DNA from: Paraspadella gotoi
Taxonomy: Eukaryota; Animalia; Chaetognatha
Reading direction: 5' to 3'
DNA: 10,892 bases
Assembly: GCA_051294375.1 (NCBI GenBank)
Contig: JBJCIZ010001016.1
Coordinates: 1 to 10,892, forward strand
Under the pieces are notes generated by a model. The model had not been told where the DNA came from. It saw nothing but the letters and a program-made list of their open reading frames with translations, and made no database searches. Of this stretch, positions 2,919 through 10,892 are shown piece after piece; position 1 is the stretch's first letter, and the number at the start of each line of letters is the position of its first letter. The translations under genes and the position numbers were made by a program.

Positions 2919-3506
2919 TAGATCCGCCCTATTGTTAACGGTCAACAAAGCCTGGTGACGGCGATTCAAAAGAAGAGAAGAGTCCAGACCGTTCGTACAG
3001 TCGTACAAGCTCTCAGTGATCGCTGAGTTTACGACAAACGTGCAATTATTTAAAGAAGTAAGGCCAACGTATGTGGCCGACGCCTCATTCGCCGGCCAAA
3101 CTCCAACGTCAAATTCGAATCTTAGAGTCGAAGTGCAGGCCACAAGCCGACGGCGACATTCGCTCTCAAACCCGTTATCCCATCTCCAGACCATCTGACA
3201 CCGCTCAACACGTTTTTCGTCAGGCAAAGCAGGCATTCATCCTCCATTACAGCACCATATGAAGGACCTTACCGTGTAGTGAATCGGCAATGGAGCTTAA
3301 CGTCACCATCAAATCCAAGTAATAGGCCGCGAAATGCTAAACATCGCCCCAGTCAAACGCAGCGTGGGTTTTCAACGAGACGTTGGGAAGGTCGGTCAGG
3401 GACATCATCAGCGAACGCCCCAGCAGGCCGCCAGCCCGGCCCTACGAACGAGGACGCCGGCAAGAAGAACAACTCGGACAACTCGTCAAATATTCAACGC
3501 ACAGGG
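2919..3506 (+). mobile_element. Ty3/Gypsy pol fragment, 5'-truncated copy (end of RNase H plus integrase C-terminal GPY/F region), frameshifted
   Basis: IAEFTT...VADA (ORF 3016), DTAQHVF (ORF 3071) and CCATATGAAGGACCTTAC = PYEGPY near 3255-3272. Homologous to the later copies. Confidence 0.85.
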
Positions 3507-4010
3507 TCGCCCAACCGGTTCCTCCTCCTCCTCCTTCCCCCTCTCACTCCCGCCTATGCCGCAGTCATAACACCCCACCTTCCCCTCCAACCCAACCCAT
3601 CGTCCCGCTTTACGGTCTTTTCCTACTCCCTCTCTCTCAGACCTCCATGCGAGACGAGTCAAATCCCCGAAGGCGAGAAGAGAGAATCACAACAACAACA
3701 ACAACGAAAAAGGAAAAAACAACTCACACGAATCGAAGATCCCTCAAACCAACGCCAGAGAACTTTTTCCTAGCAGGATGCCAATCACTAATCGACCCAC
3801 TTACTCTGTCGTGCTCAAGGAGATGCTTCGACGTCAAAAAAATACAGAATGACAACAACAACAACGACGAAGAAGAAAAACAAAAATAAAAACCTCCCCT
3901 GTCGACCTAATTGACAGTCGGGCAATCTCTTCGTCCGCGGCATCCTCTGGTCTTGCCTCCCGTCTTCATCGCTCGACTGTCCAATATTACATCGTTACCC
4001 ATAGTGTTTT

Positions 4011-4040
4011 TTGGAAATTTTGGAATTTTGGAAATTTTTT
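4011..4040 (+). repeat. Short ~9-mer tandem (TTGGAAATT)x3, present in each full unit
   Basis: TTGGAAATTTTGGAATTTTGGAAATTTTTT, recurring near 6421-6448 and 8755-8784. Confidence 0.8.
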
Positions 4041-4167
4041 CAATTTTAGATTTTGTGAAATTTTATTTTTATATTTCTAATATTTTTATTAATCAACATA
4101 CTTTCAAGTCACACAAGATGGACGAACAACCATTTTTGTTTATTATATATTACAAAGGGGGCATGAA

Positions 4168-4288
4168 GGGCCAACTTGAGCGAATCAGATCCTTTTATAG
4201 AAATAATTCATATGATTGGATTCGAACCATTCGAAGCTCAGTTCCTGAGTGGACTCGAGCTACAGCTCTGGGCCACTCAGACCGACGC
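4168..4288 (-). ncRNA. Candidate Pol III-type structured RNA, paralogue L (unit 1; noisy copy)
   Basis: Minus-strand consensus GGGCCG TCTGAGTGGC CCA GAGC-TGTA-GCTC GA GTCACTCAGA ACTTGAGT TCGAT GGTTCGAATCC...GATTC GCTCAAGT GGCCT. It has an A-box-like TGGCCCAG, a perfect B-box and stems covarying with paralogue R. Confidence 0.55.
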
Positions 4289-4391
4289 TGATTTCTCAGC
4301 GATTTTGTTATTTCATCTTAAAGCTTTAAATCTAGATTTAGAAATACTTTTGTTTTTCTTAAAACAGTTGCTCTGTTCACCAAAAGATGTC

Positions 4392-4411
4392 TTGGCGCCA
4401 TTTGGCGCCAA
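4392..4411. promoter_or_regulatory. Double TTGGCGCCA(A) dyad motif in the spacer between the divergent RNA candidates (also 6802-6821 and 9118-9136)
   Basis: TTGGCGCCATTTGGCGCCAA is a GC-rich island in an AT-rich spacer and resembles the E2F-type site TTTGGCGC. Confidence 0.35.
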
Positions 4412-4466
4412 ACTTCGTTTCTTTGTTTTTAAAGTTTTAATAAGGTTTAGATTTGATGAGGAATCA

Positions 4467-4588
4467 GGGCTGTCTGGATGGCTCTGATTGTAACTCAAGG
4501 TCGTCCAGTAGCTCGAGTTCGATGGTTTTCGAATCCCATAAGTGGAAGGAATTATTTCTGTAATAGATTGATTCACTCGAAGCGGCCC
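4467..4588 (+). ncRNA. Candidate Pol III-type structured RNA, paralogue R (unit 1)
   Basis: Consensus GGGCTG TCTGGATGGC TCT GAGT-TGTA-ACTC AAG GTCGTCCAGA GCTCGAGT TCGAT GGTTCGAATCC...GATTC ACTCGAGC GGCCC. It forms a three-way junction and contains a B-box. Confidence 0.58.
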
Positions 4589-4882
4589 CATGCCCCACCT
4601 GTATAATCCATGTTGTCGCTTGTTTGAGAAAGTTTCTCCGACGTTGGTTTTGAGAATCTTGTCATCGTTGGCTCATTCCATCTTTTTTCGTTGGTTATTG
4701 TTGTTCTTTTTGCTCTTTTCTTCTTTTTGTTCGGAACCCGTCTCGCGTGAAGCTTGCAGAGAAGAGGAGGAGGGAGCAAAAGCCGTAAAGGGGGGATGGG
4801 TGGATGGGGGAGAAGGGTGGGGAACTTTTTGGGGCTGGGTCAGTGGGAGGAGGGGAGGAGAAGAAAGAGAGGAGCGGGGCGA

Positions 4883-5933
4883 TAAGAACGGAGTGAGGCA
4901 CGGCTTCAGAAACGCGTTAAAAGCTACAGAACTGCCTGACCAACGACGATAAAGGAACTGCAGAGATTTCTGGGGATTGATGAAATTACTACAGGGCGGT
5001 TTCATCCCCAGAGTCAACAACAGATTCGCGTCCCATTGTAACGAGGCCCTCAGTGGCAAAGCGAAAATCTGGACCTGGACAAACGACTGTGAACAAGCGT
5101 TTCAGATCAAAGCGGCAATTACTTATCATCCTGGAAACCGAAGCAAAACTTTGCATCAAAAACGGATGCATCAAGATTTGGCCATTGGAGTGCTGGAGCA
5201 AGAGGCCAAAGGAATGGGAAGCCTCTGGCCTTTTTCTTGCCAAGCTCGCCAAAAAACAACGATTATGGCCTCCGTTCGATAACGAACTTTTCGGCGCCTT
5301 CAAAGCTGTCCCCACTCCAAAGCACAGGGTCAAAGGTAGATCATTTACCTTGTAATACGGATCACCAAGCCTGGTGACGGCGATTCAAAAGAAAGAAGAG
5401 TCTCAGAAAACCGTTCGTGCAGTCGTATCAGCTCTCAGATGATCGCTGAGTTTACACAGACGTGCATTATTTAAAGAGTAAGGCCAACGTTTGTGGCCGA
5501 CGCCTCTCGCGCCAAAGCTCAACGTCAAACTTCGAATCTTATGAGTCGAAGTGGCAGCCACAAACCGACGGCGACATTCGCTAGCAAAAACCCGTTATCC
5601 ATCTCAGGAACCAATCTCGACACCGCTCAACACGTTTTTCATCAGGCGAGCAAGAGCATTTCATCCTCCACTTACAGCAACCATACTGAAGACCTTAACC
5701 CGTGGTAGTGAAATAGCAACGGCCTTAACGTCAGCATCAAAATCCCCAAGTAAAAGGCGCGAAATGCTAAACATCGCCCGCGTCAAACCCAGCGGGGTTT
5801 CAACGAGAACGTTGGAGGTCGATCAGGGACATCCTCAGCGACGCCGCAGGCAGGCCGCCAGCCCCGGCCTGACGAACGAGGACGCCGGCAGAAACAACTC
5901 GGACAACTCGTTCAAAATTATTCAACGCACAGG
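4883..5933 (+). mobile_element. Internally deleted Ty3/Gypsy pol fragment (RT thumb/connection, RNase H, GPY/F tail), frameshifted
   Basis: Pieces FIPRVN, WTNDCEQAFQIKAA, DLAIGVLEQ, PFDNELFGAFKAV, TNLDTAQHVF and LNIARVKP occur in alternating frames. Confidence 0.92.
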
Positions 5934-6324
5934 TCGGCCCGAACCGGTTTCCTGCCTCCTTCCTTCCTCCTTCCCCCCTCTCAACTCCCACCACACCCAC
6001 CTTCCCCCAACCAACCCCGTCCCCTTAGCCGTCTTTTCCTCCCTCTGCGTCTCAGCCTCCATGCGAGCGAGTCAATCCCAAAGCGATGAAGAGAGAATCA
6101 CAACAACAACAAACAACGAAAGGAAAAAAACAAAACTCAACGATCGAAAGATCCTCAAACGCAACGCCAAGAGAACTTTTCTAGCAAGGATGCCAATCAA
6201 CTAATCGACCCAACTTACTCTTCGTGCTCAAGGAGATGCCTTCGACGTCAAAAAATACAGAATGACAACAACAACAACGACGAAGAAGAAAACAAAAATA
6301 AAAAACCCGCCCCTGTCGACCTAA

Positions 6325-6392
6325 TTGACAGTCGGAGCATCTCGTCCCGCATCCTCGGTCTTCCTCCCGTCTTCCTCGGCTCCGACTGTCAA
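6325..6392. other. 12-14 bp perfect stem with a ~40-nt pyrimidine-rich loop (also 3913-3981 and 8663-8725)
   Basis: TTGACAGTCGGAGC (6325-6338) pairs with GCTCCGACTGTCAA (6379-6392). In unit 3, GACAGTCGGAGC (8663-8674) pairs with GCTCCGACTGTC (8714-8725). Confidence 0.8.
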
Positions 6393-6573
6393 ATATTAAA
6401 ACATCGTTACCATAGTGTTTTTTGAAATTTTGGAAATTTTGGAAATTTGTCAATTTTAGATTTTGTGAAAATTTTTATTTTTTATATTTCTATATTTTAT
6501 TATCAACATACTTTCAGTCCAACAAGATGGCGAAACATTTTTAGTTTATTATATATTACAACAGGGGGGCATG

Positions 6574-6699
6574 AGGCCACTTGAGCGAATCAGATTCTTT
6601 TATAGAAATAATTCAATCCATGGTTGGAATCGATACCATCGAACATCAAGTTCTGAGTGACTCGAGCCTTAACCAGCTCTGGGCGCACTCAGACGGCCC
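6574..6699 (-). ncRNA. Candidate structured RNA, paralogue L (unit 2)
   Basis: Tandem copy of 4168-4288. Retains the TCTGAGTG/CACTCAGA and ACTTGA/TCAAGT stems. Confidence 0.55.
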
Positions 6700-6873
6700 T
6701 GATTTTCTAGCGATTTTGTTTTTCATTTAAAGCTTTAAATCTCGATTTAGAAAATCTTTTGTTTTTCTTAAACAAGTTGCTCTGTTCACCAAAAGATGTC
6801 TTTGGCGCCATTTGGCGCCAACTTCGTTTTCTTTGTTTTTAAAGTTTTAATAGGTTTAGATTTATGAGAATCA

Positions 6874-6992
6874 GGGCCTGTCTGGATGGCTCTGAGTTGT
6901 AACTCAAGGTCGTCAGAGCTGAGTTCGATGGTTCGAATCCCAATAAGTGGAGAATTATTTTCTGTATAGATTTGATTCACTCGAGCGGCGCC
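6874..6992 (+). ncRNA. Candidate structured RNA, paralogue R (unit 2)
   Basis: Tandem copy of 4467-4588 with an intact GGTTCGAATCCC. Confidence 0.58.
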
Positions 6993-7288
6993 GTCATGCC
7001 CCCCTGTATAATCCATGTTGTGTCGGCTTGTTTGAGGAAAGTTTCCTCCGACGTTGGTTTTTGAGAATCTTCCATCGTTGGCTCATTCCCCCATCTTTTT
7101 CGTTGTTATGTTGTTCTTTTTTGCTCTTTCTTCTTTTGTTCCGGACCCGTCTCGCGTGGAAACTGCAGAAAGAAGGAAGGAGGGACAAAAAAGCGTAAAG
7201 GGGGGATGTGGGTGGGGGAGAGGGTGGGGATTGGGGCTGGGGTCCAGTGAGGGAGGAGGAGGAGGAGAAAAAGAGAAGGAGCGGGCGA

Positions 7289-8298
7289 TAAGAAGGAGTG
7301 AGGCCGCTTCCAGAACGCGTTAAAAGCTACACGGAAACTGCTCGACCCACGACGATAAAGGAACTGCAGAGATTCTGGGATGAAAATTAATACAGCGTTT
7401 CATCCAGAGTCAACCACAGATTCGCTCCCTTGTACGAGGCCCTCAGTGGCAAGCCGAAAAATCTGGACTGGACAAACGACTGTGAACAAGCGTTTCAGAT
7501 CCAAGCGGCATATTACTTCATCATTCCTGGAACCGGAGCAAAACTTTGCATCAAAACGGATGCTCAGATTTGGCCATTGAGCAGTGCTGGGCAAAGAGGC
7601 CAAAAGGATGGGAGCCTCTGGCCTTTTTCTTGGCCAAGCTCGCCAAAAAACAACGCTTATGGCCTCCGTTCGATAACGAACTTTTCGGCGCCTTCAAAGC
7701 TGTCCGCCACTCCAAGCACAGGGTGAAGGTAGATCATTTACCTTGTATACGGATCACCAAAGCCTGGTGAACGGATTCAAAGAAAGAAGAGTCTCAGACC
7801 GTTCGTCAGTCGTATCAGCTCTCAGTGATCGCTGAGTTTACGACAGACGTGCATTATTTAAAGAGTAAGGCCAACGTTGTGGCCGACGCCCTCTCCGGCC
7901 AAACTCAACGTCAAATTCGAATCTTAAGAGTCGAAGTGGCAGGCCACAAGCCGACGGCGACATTCGCTCATCAAAAAACCCGTTATCCATCTCCCGACCA
8001 ATCTCGACACCTCTCAACACGTTTCGTCAGGCGAGCAGGCATTCTCCTCACTTACAGCACATATGAAGGACCTTACCGTGTAGTGAATCGCAACGGCCTA
8101 ACGTCACCATCAAAATCCCCAAGTAAAGGCGCGAAATGCTAAACATCGCCCGCGTCAAACCAGCGTGGGTTCCAACGAGACGTTGAGGTCGATCAGGGAC
8201 ATCCTCAGCGACGCCCAGCAGGCCCCAGCCCGGCCACGAACGAGGACGCCGGCAGAAACAACTCGGAACAACTCGTTCAAATATTCAACGCAACAGGG
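7289..8298 (+). mobile_element. Internally deleted Ty3/Gypsy pol fragment, frameshifted
   Basis: LDWTNDCEQAFQ, IKTDA, WEPLAFF.AKL, ELFGAFKAVRH, IAEFTTDVHYLKSKANVVADALS and FVRR...YEGPYRVVNR in ORFs 7430, 7546 and 7825. Confidence 0.93.
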
Positions 8299-8901
8299 TC
8301 GCCCGAACCGGTTTCCTCCTCCTCCTCCTTCCCCCTCTCACTCCCAACCACCCCACTTCCCCAACCCACCCTCGTCCCCTTTATGTCTTTTCCTCCCTCT
8401 CTCCTCAGCCCCTGGAGAGGAGTCAATCCCAGAAGCGAGAGAGAGAATCACAAACAACAACAACAACGAAAAGGAAAAACAAATCACGATCGAAGATCTC
8501 AAAACCAACGCCAAGAGAAACTTTTCGAGCAGGATGCCATCACTAATCGACCCACTTACTCTGTCGTGCTCAAGGAGATGCTTCGACGTCAAAAAATACA
8601 GAATGACAACAACAACAACGACGAGAAGAAAACAAAAATAAAACCCCCCTGTCGACCTTAATGACAGTCGGAGCATCTTCGTCCCGGCATCCTCGGTCTT
8701 CCTCCGTCTTCTCGCTCCGACTGTCCAATATTACATCGTTACCCATAGTGTTTTTTGGAAATTTTGGAAATTTTGGAAATTTTTCAATTTAGATTTGTGA
8801 AATTTATTTTTATATTTCTATATTTATTATCAACATATCTTTCAGTCACACAAGATGGACGACAACATTTTGTTTATTATATATTAACAACAGGGGGGCA
8901 T

Positions 8902-9016
8902 GAGCCACTTGAGCGAATCAGTCTTTTATGAAATAATTCATCCATGGTTGGATTCGAACCATCGAACTCAAGTTATAGTGACTCGAGCTACAGCTCTGGG
9001 CCACTCAGACGGCCCC
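8902..9016 (-). ncRNA. Candidate structured RNA, paralogue L (unit 3)
   Basis: B-box on the minus strand at 8950-8960. The GAGC-TGTA-GCTC hairpin is intact. Confidence 0.58.
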
Positions 9017-9191
9017 TGATTTTTCTCAGCGATTTTGTTTTCATTTAAAAGCTTTAAATTCTCGATTTAGAAATCTTTTTTTTTCTTAAAACAGTTGCTC
9101 TGTTCACCAAAGATGTCTTGGCGCCATTGGCGCCAACTTCGTTTTCTTTGTTTTTAAGGTTTTAAATAGGTTTAGATTTGATGAGGAATCA

Positions 9192-9305
9192 GGGCTGTCT
9201 GGATGGCTCTGAGTTGTAACTCAGGTCGTCCAGAGCTCGAGTTCGATGGTTCGAATCCCATAAGTGAGAATTATTCTGTAATAGATTTGATTCACTCGGC
9301 GGCCC
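9192..9305 (+). ncRNA. Candidate structured RNA, paralogue R (unit 3)
   Basis: A-box-like TGGCTCTGAG at 9204 and B-box GGTTCGAATCC at 9248, a 44-nt spacing as in tRNA genes. The 10-bp stem TCTGGATGGC/GTCGTCCAGA is intact. Confidence 0.6.
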
Positions 9306-9500
9306 ATGCTCCCCTGTTATAATCCATGTTGTCGCTTGTTTTGAGAAGTTTCCGAAGTTGGTTTTGAGAATCTTGTCATCGTTGGCTCATTCCCATCTTT
9401 TTCCGTTGTTATGTTGTTCTTTTTGCTCTTTTCTTCTTTGTTCGGACCCGTCTCGAGTGGAAGCTGCAGAGAAAAGGAAGGAGGGAGCAAAAAGCGTAAA

Positions 9501-9581
9501 GGGGGGATGGTGGGTGGGGGAGAGGGTGGGACTTGGGCTGGGTCAGTGAGGGAGGAGGAGGAGGAGAAGAAAGAGAAGGAG
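9501..9581 (+). other. G-run cluster (G-quadruplex potential) followed by a 34-nt polypurine tract (also ~4790-4874 and ~7200-7281)
   Basis: GGGGGGATGGTGGGTGGGGGAGAGGGTGGGACTTGGGCTGGG has seven runs of 3 or more G. Bases 9548-9581 are all purines. Confidence 0.7.
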
Positions 9582-9588
9582 CGGGCGA

Positions 9589-10607
9589 TAAAGAACGGAG
9601 TGAGGCCGCTTCCAGAACGCGTTAAAATGCTACAGGAAAATGCTCGACCCACGACGATAAAGGAACTGCAGAGATTTCTGGGATGATAAATTACTACAGC
9701 ATTTCATCCCCAGAGTCAACCACAGATTCGCCTCCCTTGTACGAGGCCCTCAGTGGCAAGCCGAAAAATCTGGACTGGACAAACGACTGTGAACAAGCGT
9801 TTCAGATCCAAGCGGCATTAAAAAAACTTCATCATCCTGGAACCGGAGCAAAAATTTGCATCAAACGGATGCCTCAGATTTGGCCATTGGAGCAGTGCTG
9901 GGCAAAAGAGGCCCAAAAGGATGGGAGCCTCTGCCTTTTCTTGCCAGCTCGCCAAAAAACAACGCTTATGGCCTCCGTCGATAACGAACTTTTCGGCGCC
10001 TTTCAAAGCTGTCCGCCACTCAAGCACAGGGTCGAAGGTAGATCATTTACCTTGTAATACGATCACAAAGCCTGGTGACGGCGTTCAAAAGAAAGAAGAG
10101 TCTCAGCGTTCGTCAGTCGTATCAGCTCTCAGTGATCGCTGAGTTTACGACAGACGTGCATTATTTAAAGAGTAAGGCCAACGTTGTGGCCGACGCCCTC
10201 TCGCGGCCAAACTCAACGTCAAATTCGAATCTTAGAGTCGAAGTGGCAGGCCACAAGCCGACGGCGACATTCGCTCATCAAAACCCGTTATCCATCTCCC
10301 GACCAATCTCGACACCGCTCAACACGTTTTCGTCAGGCGAGCAGGCATTCATCCTCCACTTACAGCACCATATGAAGGACCTTACCGTGTAGTGATCGCA
10401 ACGGCCCTTAACGTCACCAATCAAAATCCCAAGTAAAGGCGCGAATGCTAAACATCGCCCGCGTCAAACCAGCGTGGTTTCCAACGAGACGTTGGAGGTC
10501 GATCAGGGACATCCTCAGCGACGCCCAGCAGGCGCCAGCCCGTCCTACGAACGAGGACGCCGCAGAAACAAACTCGGACAACTCGTTCAAATATTCAACG
10601 CACAGGG
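9589..10607 (+). mobile_element. Internally deleted Ty3/Gypsy pol fragment (cleanest copy)
   Basis: GVRPLPERV..PTTIKELQRFLG/MINYY (RT thumb). RNase H acidic motifs: TDAS (D codon 9868), NELF (9986), DHK (10061) and VADALSR (10192). HVFVRR...PYEGPY follows (GPY at 10377-10385). No YXDD, no HHCC zinc finger, no DDE integrase core. Confidence 0.95.
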
Positions 10608-10892
10608 TCGCCCGAACCGGTTCCTCCTCCTCCTCCTCCTTTCCCTCTCACTCCAAACCACCCCACCTTCCCCCAACCCACCCTCGTCCCCTTTACGTCT
10701 TTTTTTCTCTCTCTCCTCTCCTCAGACCTCCATGCGAGACGAGTCAATCCCAGAGCGAGAAGAGAGAATCACAAACAACAACAACAACGAAAAAGGAAAA
10801 AACAAACTCACGATCGAAAGATCCTCAAAACCAACGCAGAGAACTTTCTAGCAGGATGCCAATCACTAATCGACCCACTTACTCTGTCGTGC

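Follow-up and report, generated by a model that had tools for sequence, protein, structure and literature searches.

A covarying fold with tRNA-type promoter motifs, probably carried antisense in Ty3/gypsy LTRs, in a tandem array of Paraspadella gotoi

Whether a structured domain that recurs in every unit of a tandem array is a new RNA gene or a part of the repeat itself is the question raised by a stretch of 10,892 nucleotides from the chaetognath Paraspadella gotoi (contig JBJCIZ010001016.1; the whole stretch is referred to as the window). Each unit contains two divergent domains, L and R, which an earlier note read as covarying RNAs of no known family. The fold of these domains is real and covarying. 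L and R probably belong to a transposon, not to a new set of host genes. In the reading that we favour, at a rough probability of 0.55, they lie in LTRs and would specify an antisense Pol III RNA whose non-tRNA fold is under selection; a self-limiting role of that RNA is not part of this estimate. The coordinates are collected in Table 1.

Table 1. Features of the array, of the likely LTRs and of domains L and R (window positions)
Feature	Position	Other copies	Strand	Basis or remark
Tandem array	2932..10892		.	~3.4 units of 2.31-2.42 kb each; self-blastn
Ty3/gypsy pol remnant (end of RT + RNase H)	9594..10218	4904-5524, 7295-7953, 2932-3084	+	tblastn
Integrase C-terminal piece, GPY motif	10281..10480	3168-3287, 7885-8273	+	tblastn, L003 tail
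Polypurine tract, element A	8889..8900	4154-4163, 6563-6571	+	motif scan; motif also in L003
Likely LTR A, TG...CA	8901..9126	4164-4400, 6572-6810	+	holds L on opposite strand
Likely LTR B, paralog of A	9128..9306	4403-4590, 6813-6996	-	holds R on opposite strand
Polypurine tract, element B	9307..9318	4591-4600, 6997-7005	-	motif scan
Element B 3' region	9343..9572		-	inverted, 68-72% identical to element A 3' region 8312-8526
Tail-to-tail junction CA-TT-TGGCGCCAA	9118..9136	4392-4411, 6802-6821	.	sequence, reads
Domain R	9192..9305	4467-4588, 6874-6992	+	fold, RNAalifold, covariation
Domain L	8902..9015	4168-4288, 6574-6699	-	P1-P3 three-way junction, P4-P6 inside P3
Hairpin P0 of L, CUGA-GNRA-UCAG	9015..9029		-	directly 5' of P1; loop length from reads
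Hairpin P0 of R, GGAA loop	9181..9192		+	outer pair in most contigs
A-box-like motif of L	8994..9003		-	T8 of tRNA numbering at 9003; no G19
A-box-like motif of R	9204-9213		+	motif match
B box of L, GGTTCGAATCC	8950..8960	4218-4228	-	exact match
B box of R	9248-9258		+	exact match
TATA-like element upstream of L	9046..9058	4318-4330, 6727-6739	-	common to L and R
TATA-like element upstream of R	9153..9165	4428-4440, 6838-6850	+	common to L and R

The six stretches located by the earlier note (three of L and three of R) all lie where it placed them and can be aligned with one another. Each folds better than shuffled sequence on its assigned strand, with z of -2.4 to -4.3 and 0-3 of 200 shuffles per copy folding as well. 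RNAalifold recovers every helix proposed before, i.e., P1, P2, the apical hairpin, P3 and the inner helix; the extent of the fold had been underestimated, and P4 and P5 inside P3 as well as a hairpin 5' of P1 belong to it. Pairing is seen in 93.5% of 245 alignment cells, a level reached by 0 of 500 shuffles and compared with 23-45% in slid controls; this figure rests on two lineages, and the 0/500 does not yield a probability. The GNRA loop of P0 is kept in both paralogs, as GAAA and GGAA. The UGUA loop, once described as invariant, is UGUA in five of the six window copies and UAUA in a third paralog found in the reads.

A search of Rfam with the whole window and three sub-regions returned nothing at gathering score, which upholds the view that the fold belongs to no known family. 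A covariance model built from the six window copies has no match outside the window among 27 + 34 + 9 loci, and an exact 23-nt core has none in metagenome contigs. The Alu domain of SRP (7SL RNA), in which helices 3 and 4 surround a UGUA turn and the loops pair with each other, was considered for that turn and rejected: no SRP match was obtained in Rfam, the helix-4-type pairing has a probability of 0 in the second copy of L and 0.34 in the error-bearing third copy, and the third paralog breaks this pairing yet keeps P3 and the apical hairpin. Searches of the window and two L/R regions for hammerhead, HDV-like, twister, pistol and hatchet ribozymes gave no match at E <=10. Matches to snoRNA sR33 and, at the LTR junction, to the histone stem-loop were under cut-off and were dropped.

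The comparison of L with the R of the window bears out the compensatory changes. Fourteen letters differ within the 27 pairs first proposed, all by transition; five pairs are changed on both sides, four on one side (all to or from G.U), and none is broken. When 14 transitions were placed at random, no pair was broken in 0.28% of 200,000 trials, and no broken pair was combined with five double changes in 0.019%; the very sequences that suggested the helices also served for this test, and the odds are therefore somewhat overstated. Short-read contigs contribute four further double changes. They also reveal that the R of the window represents a minority subfamily, most of the contig depth differing from it at 9196 and 9238, where C-G and U.G interchange on the B-box strand and A.C would result on the opposite one. 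In a variant of L, 8955 and 8964 change in the same contigs, which converts a C-G pair of P4 to U-A and leaves the B box valid; both are CpG-type transitions. The third, more distant paralog (contigs of X6, X7 and X9, records 10, 13 and 15, respectively; three of four runs) was read visually, from its differences and from loose ends of 30 letters. In it, both sides of a pair are changed once in P3, once in the apical hairpin and once in P6; three further pairs are changed on one side, and two at helix ends are broken. One variant, at 8903, breaks the outer pair of P1; the G concerned also takes part in the closing pair of P0. The covariation is informed by three or four lineages only, and it supports selection on a single-strand fold. 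We also note that the third LTR paralog, covering 8887-8970 in the same three runs, has lower depth and continues into ~225 nt of other sequence.

The assigned strand is favoured by energy in the case of R, where the plus strand has z of -2.4 to -4.3 vs -0.8 to -3.2 for the opposite strand. Energy alone does not single out the minus strand for L, the opposite strand of which reaches -2.8 to -4.1. The restriction of non-canonical pairs to G.U had been taken to favour RNA over DNA; single-stranded DNA would show the same bias, and RNA and DNA are inseparable on this ground. The promoter signals described below and the G.U bias indicate the same strand. Taken from the sequences, the pattern argues, with fair rather than strong confidence, for selection acting on RNA of the B-box strand.

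The 5' part of both domains very likely derives from a tRNA promoter. The window contains four exact B boxes vs 0.26 expected, every one within L or R; the box is perfect in four of the six copies, and the other two have indels there. An A-box-like motif, TGGCYCWGAG, precedes G53 by 44-45 nt in three of the four B-box copies and by 48 nt in the indel-rich first copy of L; 44-45 nt is the A-B spacing of class I tRNA. The pair of boxes occupies the 5' ~65 nt of the domain in tRNA register, and the Rfam tRNA model aligns the third copy of L in exact register, at a sub-threshold 16.3 bits (cut-off 29; E 1.3). A composite A+B pattern, which was composed after the related locus L003 had been seen, picked out nine loci in 2.9 million viral contigs, all nine of them real tRNA genes with T8 in place. 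Upstream of both domains, 28-31 nt before P0, lies a TATA-like element, TTTAAAG, whose nine matches all fall in the three spacers between L and R vs 0.12 expected; we take the spacing of these boxes and elements to be the geometry of a Pol III promoter. The suggestion of a structure-constrained SINE-like head was close in this respect.

No tRNA gene is present. ARAGORN reported none in the window and none in the 35 of 82 fetched loci that were scanned, the cloverleaf with acceptor and T stems is absent, and the T-stem pair has a probability of 0-0.14 in 6/6 copies. The statement that there is no tRNA here stands for the cloverleaf and fails for the A-box/B-box pair, which keeps the tRNA register. 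In the predicted fold, P2 is formed by the old acceptor strand and the A box pairing with the old anticodon loop. No T run of >=4 closes the fold: with indel-made runs set aside, the first lies at +148 to +185 in R, where runs of 5-6 lie 207-250 nt after the domain, and the first reliable runs in L lie at +229 to +397.

The surroundings of L and R strongly suggest that they lie in Ty3/gypsy LTRs, a pair of paralogs that meet tail to tail. The pol remnant matches P0001 residues ~400-614 with E to 5e-27 (tblastn); the catalytic core of RT is absent, and Pfam RT_RNaseH is under cut-off on one piece. The integrase piece (residues ~990-1125) is directly joined after RNase H and lacks the integrase core. 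These are the only Pol parts in the unit, gag is missing, and the unit is not autonomous. The order RT-RNase H-integrase, the polypurine tract (PPT) and the TG...CA LTR are features of Ty3/gypsy elements. A DIRS-like element was rejected, as the unit has the C-terminal piece of a DDE integrase and no recombinase was found among the 10 ORF pieces scanned. One protein search returned no match, and a search of representative sequences returned 119 unnamed ones.

The likely LTRs measure ~235 nt (A) and ~185 nt (B). Each domain corresponds to the first ~115 nt of its likely LTR, directly after the PPT and antisense to the LTR, so that the A and B boxes are antisense to both PPT and pol; directly behind the domain come, in 6/6 copies, the LTR end and the complement of the PPT. 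L and R are ~65% identical. Both LTRs terminate in TTGGCGCCA and meet as CA-TT-TG. On the plus strand the junction reads LTR end, 2 nt and a tRNA-Lys-type primer-binding site (PBS), while the primer site of the minus strand fits tRNA-Lys less well. The TG and CA ends are likely boundaries drawn from these motifs, with no solo copy with target duplication seen. The junction also forms, in all three units, a double palindrome that can fold into a small hairpin; this palindrome presumably resembles an E2F site.

The relatives among the 82 loci fetched in three scans add to this picture. Only L001-L003 are close (tblastx); the gypsy relatives (P0001-P0006 and L001-L003) show 60-66% identity over 47 residues, and we take their clade label to be CsRN1-like. 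L003, a metagenome contig, is the sole one of the three closest loci with an intact 3' end; in L001 this end is replaced by other sequence, and L002 is internal. After the integrase tail, L003 has the same PPT/LTR-start motif (purine-tract/TG-AGGCC) at 3015-3030, which supports the LTR reading. It further contains two antisense A+B heads on the minus strand; their B boxes are at 2704 and 3298, and the head with the latter lies ~80 nt inside the likely LTR end. The composite pattern matches no locus among the 82 besides L003, and no shuffle out of 20,000. The heads of L003 do not have the L/R fold (z 0.1 to 1.1; no match to the covariance model). L036 and L037 end 10-30 nt into the LTR.

Several other features of these loci are recorded here in their own right. 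Inside the likely LTR of L003, 3085-3113 and 3240-3272 contain three short complementary segments in the same order and not nested, an arrangement incompatible with one simple hairpin. L004-L006, L009-L017 and L021 represent a distant gypsy family (~30% to P0001), in which a conserved antisense T-arm-like sequence, CGG-TTCGACA-CCG, lies in the 3' region outside the LTR (13/82 loci; e.g., L004 7070 and L010 5863, minus strand; no A box seen). L032 is a coding gypsy element with two sense tRNA-like A/B-box stretches in its likely LTR (4720-5060, plus strand), which is Helenus-like. L035-L082 are eukaryotic gypsy contigs at 48 places in a prokaryote genome collection, most likely contamination.

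The units of the array are 87-88% identical and differ chiefly by indels (self-blastn, from 2932 on). The left edge of the array, at 2932-2945, falls within the RNase H remnant rather than at an LTR, which fits spread via recombination better than clean integration. The window is AT-rich and is present in nine public sequencing runs of one organism. Short-read contigs of seven of the nine runs were aligned to unit 3, and they identify its indels as assembly errors. Single contigs (X7 record 12, X9 record 14) span L, spacer and R, which rules out a long-read palindrome artefact as the source of the inverted pair. The same core is found with different AT-rich flanks in abundant short-read contigs of these two runs, so the inverted pair predates the array. 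The depth of L/R contigs is high in all eight runs labelled or guessed DNA, contig depth being no measure of copy number; X9, which is only guessed to be RNA and consists of assembled contigs, crosses the spacer and is uninformative on expression. The array unit is likely a non-autonomous composite that has spread in tandem, and the fold is likely older than the array.

The window contains further repeats and motifs. An AG microsatellite lies at 2481-2567. TTTTGGAAA repeats lie at 4009-4064, 6419-6448 and 8753-8783. The 3' regions of the units contain G-rich tracts that are possible G-quadruplexes (4770-4870, 7180-7270, 9480-9575), with C-rich counterparts. Outside the array, the plus strand has at 893-931 a hammerhead core (CTGATGA...GAAA) whose stem II is 5 bp long and which is followed by the palindrome ACATGT; Rfam gives no match to this motif and its fold is weak. 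Comparable are the minimal type I hammerheads found in Penelope-like elements. Inverted repeats of 54 nt (745-798 / 1048-1100, 81% complementary) flank the motif in a MITE-like manner.

Among known systems, the closest is Helenus (TRIMp3), a group of non-autonomous LTR elements with tRNA-derived A and B boxes in the LTR (Kojima 2024, PMC10886601; this and the other papers are cited from the portions available). Helenus elements give no working tRNA and possess a Lys-type PBS and a PPT; animal members are tied to Gypsy and some form tandem arrays (PMC10886601). The likeness includes box B (GGTTC) inside the LTR, a PBS after it and a PPT before it, and the junction letters found here open Helenus-5_PiIm-I in the PBS figure under tRNA-Lys (PMC10886601). 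There are several differences. Box A here is TRGCY at tRNA spacing, but YGG is absent, and Helenus keeps in its A box the G19 that is missing here (PMC10886601). The boxes are antisense here, whereas the portion of the Helenus supplement available has GGTTCGAATCC 21 times and its reverse 0 times; the orientation is taken from this supplement, the paper text available stating none (PMC10886601). Helenus is 311-1263 bp long and non-coding, vs a unit of 2.31-2.42 kb with a pol remnant here, and the available text reports for it no fold comparable to the covarying non-tRNA fold of L and R (PMC10886601). Two different LTRs are joined tail to tail here, and similar heads occur in the coding relative L003. 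The L/R unit is thus a variant and not a member of Helenus, from which it departs in orientation and size. Conservation in Helenus and Ajax is largely limited to the promoter boxes.

Cassandra and Ajax likewise have a Pol III promoter in the LTR and form long tandem arrays (PMC7215508, PMC10886601), and Cassandra has a conserved predicted RNA structure (PMC7215508). Their promoter is a 5S-derived type-1 promoter that drives their own transcript in sense (PMC7215508, PMC10886601), in contrast to the tRNA-type, backwards promoter found here, where T runs would stop the transcript within 200-400 nt. The heads of tRNA-derived SINEs share A/B boxes in tRNA register and the loss of the cloverleaf. 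Such heads are known to refold. No LINE-type or A-rich tail follows here; the domain extends up to the LTR terminus, with which it pairs. Compared with Ty3/gypsy elements in general, the unit lacks gag and the cores of RT and integrase, and its second LTR is inverted. Retrozymes are also non-autonomous elements with a conserved small RNA fold in their LTRs, but neither L nor R has a match to a hammerhead or other ribozyme in Rfam. Inverted tandems of LTR elements with a target motif at the junction were described in Drosophila (PMC5932611), whereas only 2 nt separate the LTR ends here. The CENP-B boxes of PMC13652916 are unrelated to L/R. Neither an antisense refolded tRNA head in a gypsy LTR nor a tail-to-tail LTR satellite is reported in the literature searched (which did not include Repbase, Dfam and subscription journals). 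To our knowledge, wherever a Pol III promoter has been described in an LTR, it lies in sense and belongs to a miniature element (Cassandra, Helenus, Ajax). L and R are better described as a variant of an LTR element with a small-RNA promoter than as a new family of host RNA genes.

How would such a promoter operate? In the favoured reading, TFIIIC would bind the A and B boxes and TFIIIB the TATA-like element ~30 nt upstream, and a Pol III RNA would start near hairpin P0. Its old acceptor strand and A box would pair with the old anticodon loop in P2, and the T-loop would be drawn into P4; refolding of this non-tRNA kind would prevent cutting as a pre-tRNA. P1 would close on the terminal motif of the LTR, from which the RNA may continue through the PPT complement and the 3' region to the first T run, with a predicted length of ~190-230 nt for R and ~390 nt for L. 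The head would be stable, and the antisense tail behind it might pair with RNA of the same family at its 3' end and damp reverse transcription. Such a self-limiting role is doubtful; this step is weakened by the report, in the portion of the source available, that Ty1 antisense RNAs neither anneal to the genomic RNA nor inhibit in trans (PMC13709905).

The foremost alternative, which we consider unlikely, places the fold in DNA: it would act in single-stranded minus-strand cDNA during reverse transcription, possibly in strand transfer, in plus-strand priming by the PPT or in shielding of the integrase attachment end, and the boxes would be a DNA site for TFIIIC or a relic. The B-box strand is indeed the minus strand, and the domain starts exactly at the PPT/LTR border. 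DNA folding parameters prefer the same strand in two of two R copies and neither strand in one L copy; folding as DNA on the B-box strand is significant for the third copy of R (z -4.3) and the second copy of L (z -3.4) and weak for the first copy of R (z -1.8). Targeting of tRNA genes by gypsy elements has been described (PMC5911963, in the portion available). The joint conservation of the TATA-like element and both boxes, at the distances of a Pol III promoter, between paralogs of only ~65% identity counts against a DNA function, as do the retained GNRA loop and the weak DNA folding of the first copy of R.

Quite improbable in our view is a two-way, TRIM-like unit, each strand of which would read LTR, primer site, internal part, PPT and LTR; R, lying in sense to both pol and PPT A, would act as an internal promoter of the Helenus kind, and the fold would signal packaging or priming. 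The succession of PPT, LTR, 2 nt and TGGCGCC on both strands fits this proposal, as do the identity of the plus-strand site with a PBS listed for Helenus in the part of that source available, the other flanks of the L-spacer-R core in the X7 and X9 loose ends, and the shared-LTR arrays formed by Cassandra (PMC7215508, in the part available). The T runs of 5-6 after R should, however, keep Pol III from traversing the 2.3-kb unit; the array begins within RNase H, the minus-strand primer site is the poorer match to tRNA-Lys, and L003 has antisense heads too, with no second LTR facing them.

The proposal of the earlier note that L and R are a pair of functional small RNA genes, each ~120 nt long, is not supported: no T run closes the fold, and the domain, close to a gypsy pol remnant, is flush with the likely LTR terminus after a PPT. 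Neither the LTR nature of these sequences nor the existence of a class with small-RNA promoters in LTRs (Helenus/Cassandra) had entered into that proposal. A version in which LTRs gave rise by domestication to such host genes, and these multiplied into a gene array, is very unlikely. Strong covariation, the divergent head-to-head layout with a shared upstream element and the high depth in the eight runs labelled or guessed DNA would suit it; the embedding in a degraded transposon unit, the coexistence of several paralogs and subfamilies and the lack of any match outside the source organism in the metagenome contigs and loci searched speak against it. Least probable is that the pairing arose without selection, as a by-product of hairpin-templated repair in palindromic LTR DNA on a decayed SINE or tRNA relic: such repair yields compensatory changes, all 14 helix changes between L and R are transitions and several helix strands are self-complementary, but repair should not restrict G.U to one strand, and multibranch helices 50-110 nt apart covary in letters confirmed by short reads.

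The favoured reading of an LTR-borne antisense Pol III RNA can be extended to a wider one, which taken as a whole appears rather unlikely. A branch of gypsy would possess in the LTR an antisense gene of its own for a Pol III RNA that derives from a tRNA, is refolded over the integrase attachment end and leads an anti-PPT tail; at the same time, the two tail-to-tail LTRs would make a two-way element, each end serving as the primer-binding site of the other, mobile on both strands.

The array illustrates a route from the 3' ends of two LTRs to a satellite. It also calls for caution, as what looks in a repeat like a covarying "new ncRNA gene" may be part of an LTR. If the antisense reading is true, the combination of a backwards promoter and a fold that compensatory selection maintains in three paralogous LTR families would constitute a new kind of transposon-encoded small RNA, one that would have a testable role in self-control or reverse transcription.
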